Virus record (IMG/VR): IMGVR_UViG_3300028832_000131
Location: 1-64,000 of that record
Strand: one strand, 5' to 3'
Origin: a virus
Lineage: Duplodnaviria > Caudoviricetes
Length of the DNA stretch: 64,000 nt
Of the stretch, positions 5,838-54,404 are shown piece after piece (position 1 is the stretch's first letter; each line of letters starts with the position of its first letter). Position numbers and translations under genes: made by a program. The notes below the pieces were generated by a model. The model was not told the origin of the DNA, ran no database searches, and saw only the letters and a program-made list of their open reading frames with translations.

Positions 5838-6656
5838 ATGAGTAAAGTGTTTACAAGTGAAGAGTTTGTAGAAAAACTAAAGTGGTTTACTACATTACCA
5901 AATGTTTACTATAGTGGTAAGTATTGGAGTCAGTTAAATGACAAAGGACAATGGAGAAACGACTGTGTGCTTTCCGTAAAAAGTTTGCTTTGGCAATTCA
6001 GTGGCGATAAAAACAAATATCGTGGAGGAACAATATATAAATCAAATGGAGTGGCGGATTTTAGTTGTAATGGTGCATTAAGTTATTGTACTAATGTAAG
6101 TACGAACTTTGCAAACCTAACTGCAGGTGAATATTTATGTATGAAAGGCACTAAGTACAATCATACAGGTATTTACTTGGGTAATGGTAAAGTTTTTGAA
6201 ATGACAAGTTGTAGTGCGTGGGGAGTTAAGAAAGCCGTAATAAGCGATATAGATAGCAAAGGTAATCGTTCTTACAAGGGAGTTAAATGTTTAAAGTGGA
6301 CATATCACGGTAAACTAATATATATAGATTATACTAATGCTCCTGTACCAATGGGGCAAGTTGCTATACTACAAGATACTATGAACAAACAATGGAATTG
6401 TGGCTTAGCCGTAGACAACTCGTTTGGACCACTAACTAGAAAAGCATGTAGAGAGCATCAACTAACTTATGGATGCAATGCTCCGATAATGGTTAAGTGG
6501 TTACAATGTAGATTAAAAGAATTAGGATATAATTTGGAGGCAGATTCGCATTTTGGACCAATTACGAAAAAATGTGTCATTAGTTTCCAGAAAAAAATGC
6601 ACTTAAATCCAGATGCTATAGTGGGTGAAAACACATACAAAGCATTAACAGAGTAG
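5838..6656 (+). CDS. Endolysin (NlpC/P60-CHAP-like catalytic domain plus peptidoglycan-binding repeats)
   Basis: DCV...HTGIYLGNGKV catalytic motifs; C-terminal LAVDxSFGPxT repeats. Confidence 0.8.
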   Translation: MSKVFTSEEFVEKLKWFTTLPNVYYSGKYWSQLNDKGQWRNDCVLSVKSLLWQFSGDKNKYRGGTIYKSNGVADFSCNGALSYCTNVSTNFANLTAGEYLCMKGTKYNHTGIYLGNGKVFEMTSCSAWGVKKAVISDIDSKGNRSYKGVKCLKWTYHGKLIYIDYTNAPVPMGQVAILQDTMNKQWNCGLAVDNSFGPLTRKACREHQLTYGCNAPIMVKWLQCRLKELGYNLEADSHFGPITKKCVISFQKKMHLNPDAIVGENTYKALTE

Positions 6657-6674
6657 GGGAAGAAGGAGTAAAAT

Positions 6675-7001
6675 ATGGTTGAGACGATAATTAAAACGGC
6701 GATTGGTTATATAATACCTGCTGTATTTGGATTTTTAATAGCAAAACTTACAAGTTATAGAAAAAAGAATAACAGTATTAAAATAGCAATAATGACTATT
6801 TTACAAAGTAATATATCAAATACATTCTTCTTATATGACCCTATAAAAAAAATACCTGATTATTTATACAAGAACATATTAAATCAAGACAAGTCTTATA
6901 AAGCATTAGGTGGCAACGATTATATAGAAGCAATAATGCAAAAAATGAAAAAATGGGAAATTATTAGAACAGACATATTGCATGATAAACCTCAAATATG
7001 A
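6675..7001 (+). CDS. Membrane protein, holin-like
   Basis: N-terminal TM helix, directly after the lysin, conserved in B (54028-54354). Confidence 0.5.
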   Translation: MVETIIKTAIGYIIPAVFGFLIAKLTSYRKKNNSIKIAIMTILQSNISNTFFLYDPIKKIPDYLYKNILNQDKSYKALGGNDYIEAIMQKMKKWEIIRTDILHDKPQI

Positions 7002-7007
7002 TATAAT
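6978..7007 (+). promoter_or_regulatory. Sigma-A-type promoter
   Basis: TTGCAT-18-TATAAT with extended TG. The -10 box is lost in the B copy. Confidence 0.6.
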
Positions 7008-7013
7008 TAATTT

Positions 7014-7235
7014 GTTAGACGAGTTGTGTATCTTTGGGTCATTATGACACCATCAAGTCTGGTTGGGAGATGCACTACCAGATAACTCAATACTAACATT
7101 AATTATGCGTTGATAATATGTAAAAATGGTTACTTATACACCTAGACCGTATGGGATTTACCGTTAGAAATGTATAAGCATATTATTGGCGAAAGGTAAA
7201 ATCGCATTAGAGGTGGAGAAATCTGCCTCTATTTG
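7014..7235 (+). ncRNA. Putative structured ncRNA (genome A only)
   Basis: Multiple perfect stems, two potential pseudoknots, terminal GAAA-tetraloop hairpin, no ORF. Confidence 0.6.
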
Positions 7236-7250
7236 TTTAAGGAGAAATAA

Positions 7251-7541
7251 ATGGAAGAAGAAATTAAAGAAATACGTGAAGAAATAAAAGCCATACACGA
7301 AATAGCATTACAAAATAAAAAGGCTACTAAAACTAATGCTAAAAACATAAAAAATAATTTTGATAAAATGAATCAAAACACTTTTGTATTAGATATTCTT
7401 AAAGATTATAAAAGTGAAATAGATACTTTAAAGGATATAGTTAAAACAAACAAAAAAACTATTAAAATTATGCTTGTTGTATTAGCATTAATGGTTGTAA
7501 TATTAGCGTTGGTTTGCGTTCATCATTTTATAATAGCGTAG
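7251..7541 (+). CDS. Coiled-coil protein with C-terminal TM helix
   Basis: 96 aa, strong SD, conserved in B (54405-54674). Confidence 0.7.
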   Translation: MEEEIKEIREEIKAIHEIALQNKKATKTNAKNIKNNFDKMNQNTFVLDILKDYKSEIDTLKDIVKTNKKTIKIMLVVLALMVVILALVCVHHFIIA

Positions 7542-7551
7542 GTGAAAGCCT

Positions 7552-7752
7552 ATGAAAAGTTTTAATTTTATTAAAACCGAATATAATTATATTTGTGAAG
7601 AGGCTATGCTTAATGATGATTATAAAAAATTATTAGAAATGGAAATTAAAGGCTATTCCAGAACCAAGATGGCTATGGAACTTTATGTTACGGATTATAC
7701 GCTAGACAAAATGATAGCCGAATTAAAGAAAAAAATTACAAAAGTTTTATAA
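7552..7752 (+). CDS. Small HTH regulator (LuxR/sigma-r4-like)
   Basis: GYSRTKMAMELYVT helix-turn-helix pattern; conserved in B. Confidence 0.6.
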   Translation: MKSFNFIKTEYNYICEEAMLNDDYKKLLEMEIKGYSRTKMAMELYVTDYTLDKMIAELKKKITKVL

Positions 7753-7801
7753 AAACATTATAAGAACATTACAAAATAATGTTCTTTTTTTATGCGACAA
7801 T
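7750..7801 (+). promoter_or_regulatory. Inverted repeat/terminator overlapping a putative activator-dependent promoter
   Basis: AAGAACATTA-N5-TAATGTTCTT plus T tract, AAnACATT direct repeats, TG-n-GACAAT. Conserved in B at ~54890-54965. Confidence 0.5.
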
Positions 7802-37481: not shown

Positions 37482-37557
37482 GGGTTTATCGTTTAACAGG
37501 AAAGGATTATGGTCTCCAAAACCATTGATTAGGGTTCGAATCCCTATGAATCTGCCA
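37482..37557 (+). tRNA. trnW: tRNA-Trp (CCA)
   Basis: 76 nt cloverleaf, anticodon loop CTCCAAA, T arm TAGGG-TTCGAAT-CCCTA, G73, encoded CCA end. Confidence 0.9.
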
Positions 37558-46795: not shown

Positions 46796-47267
46796 GAAAG
46801 ATGGTGATATGATGATACAAGAATATACTCAAGGAGTTTATACTTATAAGTTAGCAAGCCCATCTGTAGTAATATCTAAAGTTAAAATAAACAACGTAGA
46901 TATATCTAAATATTTATCTAACAACTCTCAAGTTGGTTGGTATGACGTTTCTAGGAATAGTGGACGTGATACTACTACTGCTGACGGGAAAATGATACTT
47001 AATGTTATATCTACTAAATATAGACTTGATTTAGTAACTAGACAATTAACTCGTGATGAAATAGTTGATTTCTTTGCACAAATTAAATTACGTCCTACTA
47101 TGGAAGTAAAGTTTTTAAATCCATTTACTAATACTTGGAAAACAATAAATGCTTATAGAGGAGATAGAATTGCTCAGGCTGCTTATCCAGTTCAAGTAAC
47201 TGAGGGAGTAAATAATGCTTTGGTTGAAATCTTTAATCCAGTATCAATAGCATTAATAGAATTGTAG
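46794..47267 (+). CDS. Distal-tail-like protein
   Basis: Directly after the tape measure gene; SRNSGRDT...YRGDR motif. Confidence 0.65.
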   Translation: MKDGDMMIQEYTQGVYTYKLASPSVVISKVKINNVDISKYLSNNSQVGWYDVSRNSGRDTTTADGKMILNVISTKYRLDLVTRQLTRDEIVDFFAQIKLRPTMEVKFLNPFTNTWKTINAYRGDRIAQAAYPVQVTEGVNNALVEIFNPVSIALIEL

Positions 47268-47274
47268 GTGTTAT

Positions 47275-48936
47275 ATGGTAAGTGAAGAGTTTATAAATGA
47301 GTGTAAAAATTATGCTTATGAAAACCGATATGGAAAAATAGAGTTTTCAAGTCCCTCATTAGAATTAAATCAAAGCAATAAAATACAAGAGTTTACTATA
47401 GATGATGGTTGCTATGATAATGGTGATATTGTAGGATCTGTGTATGTAAAGAAACTAACAGCCAAACTTATAGATGCTATTGAAGATAACATAGAAAATA
47501 GAGAATTTGATGCTAGTGTTGGTGTTACTTATAATGTGGTTGAAGAGATTGACGGTGAAGACGTAGAGAGTGAAGAAACCGAATATATGGACTTAGGCTC
47601 ATACATAGTAGAGAAACCTAAAGACGAACAAACGGAAAACTTTTCATCATTTGTTAGTTATGACTTGTTAATGCAACATTTAGATGAAAAATATACGACT
47701 TCATTAGATTATGAAAATGAGACTATAACAATAGCAGACGTTTATGAAGAAGTATGTAGTTTACTAAATGTAACACCAGTAACATTAACATTTACAAATA
47801 GCACAATTCAAGTTGAAGATAATCCATTTGTAGGTGGAGAAACAAATCGTATGGTATTAAACTCTATTGCAAAAACTGCTTGTGCATTTGTAGATATAGA
47901 TTATGATACAAATGAAATAGATTTAAAATGGTTAAGCAATAGTTTAGATTATACCTTCGAATTAAGCGATTATTCGTCCTTAGAAGGCGGAAAAACTGTA
48001 TATGGACCAATTAACTCATTAATAATAAAAAGTAGTGCTATAGATAGCGAAAACGTGTCTTATGATGATGATGAAAGCATTGCACTATATGGAGAACACC
48101 AATTAGTTATAAGTGAAGATTATTTCTTATATAATGCAGATAAAAGAGAAGAAGCTTTAATGCCTATATGGAATAAAGTAAATGGACTAACGTATACAGA
48201 ATGTAGTTTGACTACTTATACTGGTAAACCATTTTTGAAAAAAGGTAGCAAGATAAGAATATACAAAGACGAAGAAAATTACATAGATAGTTATGTATTA
48301 CAACACCAATTTAAGTTTGATGGTGCATTTACAAGTATAATCAAATGTCCTGTATTAACAGAACAAGAAATAAAAACAAAACAAGACATAAGCTTAGGCG
48401 AAAAACTAAGACAAACCGAAATAATTGTTAACAAACAAAACGGAACAATTACAAGTGTAGTATCGAGAACAGATCAATTAGATACAACAGTAAATAATAA
48501 CTATCAAGAAATTATTAACAAGTTTGATGCTTATGCTCCACAGTCTGCAATAGTAGATATACAAACACAAGTACAAAACATTCAAACAGACACATACAGT
48601 AGAACACAAATAGATACTATGATGATAGATGGTACTGTAAAAAAAGTACAAACAGCAAGTGCTACTTATGATGAAAGTGGAATGACTTATGAAAAAAGTA
48701 ACTCAAATGCAAAAACAACAATAAATGAGGTTGGAGTACAAGTTAAAGACTCTAACACTAATAACACAATATTATTTGCTGGTTATGTAGATGGTAATAA
48801 TACACAATATACTGCATATCAAGGACAGACAATCGTAGCAACCGACAATATTATTGTAGACAATTATTTAGTTATAGGAACACATAGCAGATTTGAAGAT
48901 TATGAATCAGGAACAGGTTGTTTCTTTATAGGGTAG
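47275..48936 (+). CDS. Minor tail/tail-tip protein (B allele)
   Basis: Homolog of 254-1939. Confidence 0.75.
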   Translation: MVSEEFINECKNYAYENRYGKIEFSSPSLELNQSNKIQEFTIDDGCYDNGDIVGSVYVKKLTAKLIDAIEDNIENREFDASVGVTYNVVEEIDGEDVESEETEYMDLGSYIVEKPKDEQTENFSSFVSYDLLMQHLDEKYTTSLDYENETITIADVYEEVCSLLNVTPVTLTFTNSTIQVEDNPFVGGETNRMVLNSIAKTACAFVDIDYDTNEIDLKWLSNSLDYTFELSDYSSLEGGKTVYGPINSLIIKSSAIDSENVSYDDDESIALYGEHQLVISEDYFLYNADKREEALMPIWNKVNGLTYTECSLTTYTGKPFLKKGSKIRIYKDEENYIDSYVLQHQFKFDGAFTSIIKCPVLTEQEIKTKQDISLGEKLRQTEIIVNKQNGTITSVVSRTDQLDTTVNNNYQEIINKFDAYAPQSAIVDIQTQVQNIQTDTYSRTQIDTMMIDGTVKKVQTASATYDESGMTYEKSNSNAKTTINEVGVQVKDSNTNNTILFAGYVDGNNTQYTAYQGQTIVATDNIIVDNYLVIGTHSRFEDYESGTGCFFIG

Positions 48937-54354: not shown

Positions 54355-54364
54355 TAAGTTTATG

Positions 54365-54390
54365 AGGCGGTTTATTCCGCCTTTTTTTAT
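54365..54390 (+). terminator. Intrinsic terminator
   Basis: AGGCGG-TTTATT-CCGCCT-TTTTTT, occupying the slot of the 7.0 kb RNA in A. Confidence 0.75.
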
Positions 54391-54404
54391 AAAGGAGAAA
54401 TCAA

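Follow-up and report, generated by a model that had tools for sequence, protein, structure and literature searches.

A probable accessory RNA gene of about 225 nt, structured and modular, in the slot that holds ROOL in related phages

The window analysed here, a stretch of 64,000 nt of viral DNA, contains an ORF-free unit of about 225 nt that runs from a promoter to a terminator at 7014-7238 on the plus strand. On balance, we consider it probable that this unit is an independent gene for a structured non-coding RNA, accessory and modular in nature, which acts in trans and is a positional alternative to ROOL. Along with GOLLD, ROOL is one of the abundant RNAs of phages whose structures have been solved and whose function is unknown. 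A sequence-only reading of the DNA had proposed a mobile or dispensable structured ncRNA at this place, and this proposal is supported by near-isogenic alleles with and without the RNA and by domains that recombine independently. The ends and the abundance of the transcript are predictions from the sequence.

The window belongs to a 74,104-base IMG/VR virus record, in which one phage genome is present twice in tandem as diverged copies, A at 1-47021 and B from 47022 onward. The two genomes are about 71-84% identical over aligned blocks. The tandem period is ~47 kb, and at the join (1-300 and 47022-47321) the first 300 bases are 99% identical. Filled and empty alleles of the RNA slot were also found on separate short contigs, both from the runs SRR11060108 and SRR8543131; there, contigs with the identical A-type 108-aa protein have a gap of 249 nt and those with the identical B-type protein a gap of 50 nt. 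As A-type and B-type contigs occur separately in both runs, the assembly may have joined two strains that co-existed, in which case the 74-kb record is a chimera and not one molecule.

The RNA unit lies at the end of the lysis module of genome A. Upstream of it, a DUF285 tail-region protein is followed by an endolysin that has a PG_binding_1 domain (5838-6656) and by a 108-aa membrane protein of unknown function (phrog_4105; 6675-7001, plus strand); after the gap of 249 nt comes a 96-aa coiled-coil/TM protein (7251-7541, plus strand). The last of these is the first gene of the post-lysis operon, has a homologue 3' of ROOL in the related genome L002 and is followed by more small genes up to a DnaD-like replication gene. 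Homologues of the 108-aa protein flank every slot allele, as found by a homologue search and retrieval of the contigs. In the contig L074 (1-990), a separate Phage_r1t_holin gene and an M23 peptidase endolysin precede this homologue; judged from this arrangement, the 108-aa protein is probably the third gene of the lysis module and not the holin.

The predicted promoter is strong and of the sigma-A/sigma-70 type (plus strand, 6978-7007), with TTGCAT at 6978-6983, an 18-nt spacer and the extended -10 box TG-n-TATAAT at 6999-7007. The last codons of the 108-aa gene contain the -35 box, and the promoter overlaps the stop codon of this gene at 6999-7001. It was read in the sequence, and relatives have homologous promoters; a consensus promoter scanner passed over it, as its -35 hexamer has only three matches in six positions. 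A perfect TATAAT is located 5-7 nt 5' of the clamp helix P0 (see below) in every cassette, in four different upstream contexts. At the other end, the unit closes with an intrinsic terminator (7208-7238, plus strand), which consists of a 10-bp stem with a GAAA loop (hairpin 7208-7231, -13.2 kcal/mol) and the tract UUUGUUU. This is the sole terminator-like hairpin with a T-run in 6400-7800. It also occurs in the empty and the ROOL alleles, and the RBS of the next gene (7239-7244) follows directly. The sigma-A promoter ahead of an ORF-free region and the terminal GAAA-tetraloop hairpin had both been recognized in the sequence-only reading, all coordinates of which agree with the sequence. The terminator loop is GAAA (7218-7221 in the window) in all three alleles that join D1 and D2 (A, L047 and L048), and UUUAUU, AAAA or UUUU in empty or ROOL alleles (54371-54376; L073; L002). 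Docking of the GAAA loop into the RNA is conceivable; as A, L047 and L048 are closely related, common ancestry may likewise account for its presence.

The plus strand folds better than its dinucleotide shuffles (z = -2.66; 2 of 200 shuffles as good), as the proposal of a structured RNA demands, and the minus strand gives z = -2.57. From the three full-length RNAs, RNAalifold independently recovered P0, P1, H1, H2, stems a and b and the terminator. P0 is an outer clamp that had been missed before. Its 5' strand, UGUUAG at 7013-7018, coincides with the predicted 5' end of the transcript (start at about G7014), and its 3' strand, CUAACA at 7093-7098, was assigned by alignment pairing and RNAalifold (both on the plus strand). 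The clamp thereby encloses domain 1.

Domain 1 (D1; 7021-7088, plus strand) comprises the stem P1 (7021-7026/7083-7088), the hairpin H1 (7035-7052), the hairpin H2 (7058-7063/7077-7082) and a pseudoknot between the junction 7027-7034 and the H2 loop 7067-7074. This is the architecture proposed earlier, and it is kept by compensatory changes in five variants, which are the whole set for D1. The pseudoknot strands are UGUAUCUU / GAGAUGCA in the window and UGAGUUCU / AGAACUUA, UGUAUUC / GGAUACA, UGUGUUG / CAACACA and UAUGUUU / AAACAUA in the others. There are thus five different strand pairs in five variants, each complementary to its own partner. The mean duplex energy is -7.8 kcal/mol for cognate against -2.9 kcal/mol for non-cognate strands, and the true loop-junction assignment is the single best of 120 permutations. 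Tested sequence by sequence, 3-19 of 2000 shuffled loops were as good. In H2, a C-G pair is changed to U-A and a U-A pair to G-C, and in P1 a G-U pair is changed to G-C. On the MAFFT alignment, 89.7% of the D1 cells are paired, compared with 33-52% when partners are slid; the former value is an underestimate, as the loop of L047 is misaligned by one column. Between phages, the identity is 62-73% in the D1 core and 100% in P0/P1. Hence, the fold of D1 is kept while its sequence drifts. Few unpaired bases of D1 are strictly conserved, and this domain may provide a scaffold instead of an active site.

Domain 2 (D2; 7108-7191, plus strand) is a bulged hairpin, defined by co-variation and RNAalifold. 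Stem a (7108-7120/7179-7191) is followed by a 12-nt bulge, UAAAAAUGGUUA (7121-7132), stem b (7133-7140/7171-7178) and an apical part (7141-7170), in which conserved (A/G)GAC(A/C)G and GAAA(A) elements flank a variable tip. The former element reads UAGACCG in the window and UGGACAG in most homologues. The alignment holds eight copies, four joined to D1 and four stand-alone. Over 23 pairs in these copies, 96.7% of the cells are paired versus 21-44% with partners slid; both partners are changed in 10 pairs, and no shuffle out of 500 scores as high. Five of the eight copies (the four stand-alone ones and L055) were found with an exact 20-nt word over the bulge and stem b, so the invariance of these two parts is partly by construction. 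The co-variation itself arises in stem a and the apical stem. The strand of the RNA is set by 17 G:U cells in D2 as the plus strand. With compensatory changes in D1 and in the stems of D2, both modules are under selection for their fold.

The model proposed earlier for this domain holds in part. Its stems 7109-7120/7179-7190 and 7133-7140/7171-7178 co-vary. L048 and L055 do not conserve the outermost stem (ATGCG 7105/CGCAT 7203), and in its place RNAalifold lengthens stem a by the pair C7108-G7191. A second pseudoknot had been suggested between the loop ATTTACC (7156) and GGTAAAAT (7195); between 65 and 383 of 1000 shuffled partners are as good, and the 3' partner is missing in L055. Thus, one of the two pseudoknots stands, namely that of D1, and the one in D2 is unsupported. 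D2 is followed by a 3' tail, AAAGGUAAAAUCGCAU (7192-7207, plus strand), which is conserved in A, L047 and L048 and resembles GCAAAGGUA after the alternative 3' domain of L006.

An ORF with an RBS common to four homologues was found on neither strand, in agreement with the earlier description of the region as ORF-free. A mini-frame from the AUG at 7126 in the D2 bulge (7126-7167 in the window; MVTYT-x-G/R-Q/P...) is readable in all eight copies of D2. We rejected it as coding: it has no Shine-Dalgarno sequence, its stop varies from 9 codons up to read-through of stem b in L061, and third positions are conserved rather than first and second ones, which is the opposite of coding.

A cmscan against Rfam, as had been advised, assigned the RNA to no family (gathering threshold on the window; E <= 10 on 6900-7320). 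The ROOL model (RF03087) gave no match at E <= 10 in 6900-7320 and none in the window or the whole record. With 15 homologous or related loci searched at E <= 0.1 included, the sole hits of these scans were ROOL in L002/L049 and a tRNA. The models of hammerhead, twister, pistol, hatchet and HDV-like ribozymes had no match at E <= 10. A tRNA was not detected in the element or in seven homologous loci (ARAGORN or Rfam model), and P0 is followed by UUAAUU and not by CCA. The sole tRNA of the window is a tRNA-Trp (CCA) at 37482-37557, 30 kb from the RNA slot. Among GenBank phages and PLSDB plasmids, no similar DNA was found.

The slot between the two flanking genes is occupied differently in related phages. 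It is empty in genome B (54355-54404, plus strand), where a stop codon, a terminator hairpin (54364-54383) with T-tract and an RBS follow one another without -10 box, P0 or RNA. The same two flanking genes border the slot in B, in agreement with the sequence-only reading, which had noticed that B retains a 50-bp terminator and has lost the -10 box. The allele of L073, the flanks of which are close to those of A, is empty as well. The RNA consisting of D1 and D2 is present in A, L047 and L048, ROOL in L002, L049 and L050, and other small RNAs in L006, L046, L062 and L074. In L002 (a complete genome of 49.5 kb), L049 and L050, ROOL lies between the same flanking genes, the same stop-overlapping promoter and the same terminator. 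Full-length ROOL scores 168.1 bits in L002 and 166.7 bits in L049 (gathering cut-off of RF03087, 99.1). In L002 and L049 it is enclosed by the same P0 clamp, GUUAGUUG.../...CAACUAAC, and D1 therefore occupies the position of ROOL. The ROOL-bearing complete genome lacks D1 and D2, and the present record lacks ROOL.

The remaining alleles vary further. In L006, P0 is closed on a short loop and followed by a different 3' domain (D2'). In L046, P0 carries compensatory changes (GAUAG/CUAUC) and is combined with another insert and D2'. The L074-L077 allele encodes a 140-nt promoter-to-terminator RNA (L074:1319-1531, identical in L075-L077). This RNA contains a 24-nt CU-rich, anti-Shine-Dalgarno-like tract, CUUCCUUUCCUUCUCCUUUCUUCU, which suggests that RNAs of the L074 type may be base-pairing regulators. 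In L078, the promoter leads straight into the operon. A second promoter after the terminator was found in L006, L046, L062 and L074. With a promoter and a terminator of its own by sequence (transcription being predicted) and empty alleles in B and L073, the RNA has the features of a moron.

Homologues were obtained from other metagenomes, namely L047, L048, L055 and L088, in addition to L062, the 5' domain of which is identical. Relatives of the 108-aa protein led to L047 and L048, and DNA-pattern scans to L055, L062 and L088. In L047 and L048, the same RNA sits in the same slot. Elsewhere it is flanked by genes for a minor head protein and a scaffold protein (L055, a metagenome contig) or located 3' of an endolysin, an HNH gene and a 96-aa ORF (L062, an IMG/VR contig) or in a divergent intergenic region (L088, an IMG/VR contig). 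Most loci of more distant relatives of the 108-aa protein have gaps of < 100 nt. Between A and L047, the identity is 100% for P0/P1, 94% for D2 and 98% for the tail and terminator, compared with 74% for the 108-aa gene. Hence, P0/P1, D2, the tail and the terminator are more conserved than the neighbouring genes, and the D1 core drifts at about the pace of these genes.

The D1 of L062 is 100% identical to that of the window and is joined to a different 3' domain (D2'). D2 alone occurs in non-coding regions of phages or prophages, in L053, L058/L059 (between HNH and putative terminase genes, the latter being our own reading of open frames), L060 (a rumen MAG of Erysipelotrichaceae) and L061 (an Agathobacter genome). 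The only pointers to hosts come from these stand-alone copies. As seen in L062, L055, L088, L053, L058, L060 and L061, D1 and D2 recombine independently. The D2 motif is rare: a covariance model found no further copies in the window or in 55 loci and was positive in one of 151 genomes in the family of G002. A pattern scan of IMG/VR for the bulge plus GACAG returned, beyond L058/L059, only chance matches in coding sequence. A scan with a promoter-P0 word yielded 67 loci, among which L088, L062 and L132 (the L006 record) are real.

Two of these loci carry longer ORF-free arrays of > 700 nt on the minus strand, with D1 first (L055:1900-2565 and L088 at about 1900-2619). Their further modules are D2 or D2' (AUGCAC...GUGCA), a GGGGUACGUUGUAUAGCGUAC hairpin, a GAGUAGAUAU/AUAUCUAUUC stem around variable inserts and then AUGGUGCUUAUAAA. 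Neither the arrays nor the other small RNAs of the slot have a match in Rfam. Genes resembling HNH or homing endonucleases adjoin three of the four stand-alone D2 copies and the L062 cassette (L053:1282-1923, L058:2325-2717, upstream of 6945 in L060 and L062:667-927). RusA-like genes, according to our own reading of the translations, lie downstream of D2 in L053 and L060. The adjacency of HNH genes to D2 may reflect co-mobility.

Among known systems, ROOL (RF03087) is a phage-borne RNA of unknown function (PMC5737381), which forms an RNA-only nanocage according to cryo-EM (bioRxiv 10.1101/2024.12.08.627333 / PMC12286853). The present RNA resembles it in being phage-borne, accessory, ORF-free and pseudoknotted, and as phage cargo it shares the slot, promoter, P0 clamp, terminator and flanking genes with the ROOL of L002, L049 and L050. 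It differs in size, about 225 nt compared with about 580 nt, and in the lack of a match to the model at E = 10. It also lacks the features of the ROOL class, having one supported pseudoknot and no multistem junction beyond P1/H1/H2. ROOL is the closest known entity, and the relation is one of position and cassette, not of homology. GOLLD and other orphan large phage RNAs are structured cargo that is often swapped with tRNAs or other RNAs. The RNA described here is much smaller, has no match in Rfam and, unlike these, is not beside a tRNA. AgvB, an anti-sRNA of EHEC lambdoid prophages (PMC4104026), represents moron sRNAs, with which our RNA shares its own promoter and terminator, an accessory slot near late or lysis genes and absence in close relatives. 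AgvB acts through a short antisense seed with Hfq in Gram-negative hosts, whereas the present RNA is almost fully structured, has no evident seed and is not related in sequence. The put RNA of HK022 and attenuator leaders have a similar order of promoter, folded RNA, terminator and gene. Unlike put or riboswitch leaders, however, our RNA has no antiterminator, its terminator is found without the RNA in other alleles, and the RNA precedes unrelated genes. The pRNA of phi29 is comparable as a small phage RNA with a hairpin like a three-way junction, and some D2 copies are near head or terminase genes (L055, L058); no Rfam pRNA match and no self-complementary loop pair were seen here. Phages that use pRNA also differ from phages of the window type, which encode terminase genes (terS according to the sequence-only reading; in L058, the open frames already mentioned).

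A different explanation is that the unit is a cis-acting leader of the post-lysis operon, in which the promoter at 6978 drives the genes from 7251 onward and the RNA modulates read-through of the terminator 7208-7238, either as a riboswitch or attenuator or in the manner of HK022 put. We consider this quite improbable, and a riboswitch-like leader, one of the roles suggested earlier, is disfavoured. In A, L047 and L048, the RBS follows directly after the terminator without a second promoter, so that the promoter of the RNA is the only nearby one for 7251-7752, and the imperfect T-tract UUUGUUU makes some read-through likely. However, folds of the nascent transcripts of A, L047 and L048 leave the 5' arm of the terminator essentially unpaired; no alternative pairing sequesters it in any of the three, and no antiterminator was thus found. 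The same junction of terminator and RBS stands without the RNA in B and L073 and after ROOL, and L006, L046, L062 and L074 have a second promoter after the terminator. The downstream genes also differ. They encode a coiled-coil TM protein in A and a scaffold protein in L055, where D1 and D2 lie between head genes; in L088, in a divergent intergenic region, other RNA modules follow, and stand-alone D2 is near HNH and RusA-like genes. Because an antiterminator is lacking, the terminator stands without the RNA and the RNA precedes unrelated genes, a leader of the riboswitch type is unlikely. For the window allele, the absence of a second promoter before the gene at 7251 leaves room for some cis role by read-through, polymerase-modifying and put-like.

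The unit could also encode a trans-acting sRNA that pairs with an mRNA or sRNA of host or phage by an unpaired segment, be it the 12-nt bulge, the linker or the 3' tail. Its anatomy is that of a moron sRNA gene, accessory and with its own promoter and terminator; the L074-L077 allele of the slot has the CU-rich tract, and there is precedent in AgvB and others (PMC4104026). We nevertheless regard such base pairing as very unlikely, as most of the RNA is tied up in conserved helices and a pseudoknot, the D1 strands, which vary most, do so with their pairing preserved, unlike a free seed, and a C-rich or CU-rich seed is missing in the window allele. It is extremely improbable that the unit is a functionless remnant of recombination, for example of a ROOL cassette that has decayed, or an element of the DNA (a hairpin or a site where protein binds) without a role as RNA. 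Many alleles occur at this slot, a recombination hot spot; the arms near P0 resemble the ROOL cassette (GUUAG..UUGU..CUUUG), and the minus strand also folds better than its shuffles. However, compensatory changes preserve every helix and the pseudoknot, and the parts of the RNA named above outlast the neighbouring coding sequence in conservation. The dedicated promoter is maintained in the four contexts. A minus-strand RNA or a DNA cruciform was rejected, as the 17 G:U cells would be A-C mismatches there. Decay of ROOL was likewise rejected, as homology in a pairwise alignment with the L002 cassette is confined to the promoter, the terminator and the first bases, and the ROOL model is silent here even at E = 10.

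According to the reading that we prefer, an accessory RNA acting in trans, a group of uncultured, rumen-type phages would carry an exchangeable cassette for RNA expression where the lysis module ends. Transcription is predicted to start near G7014, the first base of the P0 clamp, which would bury the 5' end in P0, and to end at the late-operon terminator, which would bury the 3' end in the terminator hairpin. The RNA would then accumulate as a discrete and stable folded molecule. Its three-dimensional fold would be what acts, either in binding a partner (protein or RNA) or in self-association, and not long antisense pairing or control of the next gene in cis. The invariant unpaired bases of D2 look like a binding site and would be the likeliest contact surface, and the co-varying pseudoknot of D1 may serve as a structural core or as a specificity element. 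Functionally, the RNA would be accessory and moron-like, standing in for, or offering an alternative to, what ROOL provides.

That D1-D2 may do the same job as ROOL is suggested by position alone, the two being similar in neither sequence nor fold. A broader proposal is that the P0-clamped slot serves phages generally as a platform on which RNA cargoes with one job are exchanged; D1-D2 would then replace ROOL functionally in miniature form, for instance as an RNA particle that self-associates or captures a partner. We regard this proposal as unlikely. If it were true, the near-isogenic triad of empty slot, 225-nt RNA and ROOL would give a direct handle on ROOL-type function, and a specificity determinant would be marked by the D1 pseudoknot, which drifts fast while its pairing is preserved.

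D1 and D2 are two new RNA modules with covariation support and without an Rfam family. Together, they form a new RNA family within the orphan structured RNAs of phages, with an unusually clear allelic series. An RNA of 225 nt can occupy the place of ROOL, and the same cassette of promoter, 5'-end clamp, terminator and flanking genes is found with ROOL, with this or another small RNA or with nothing, which means that these RNAs are accessory and exchanged as modules.
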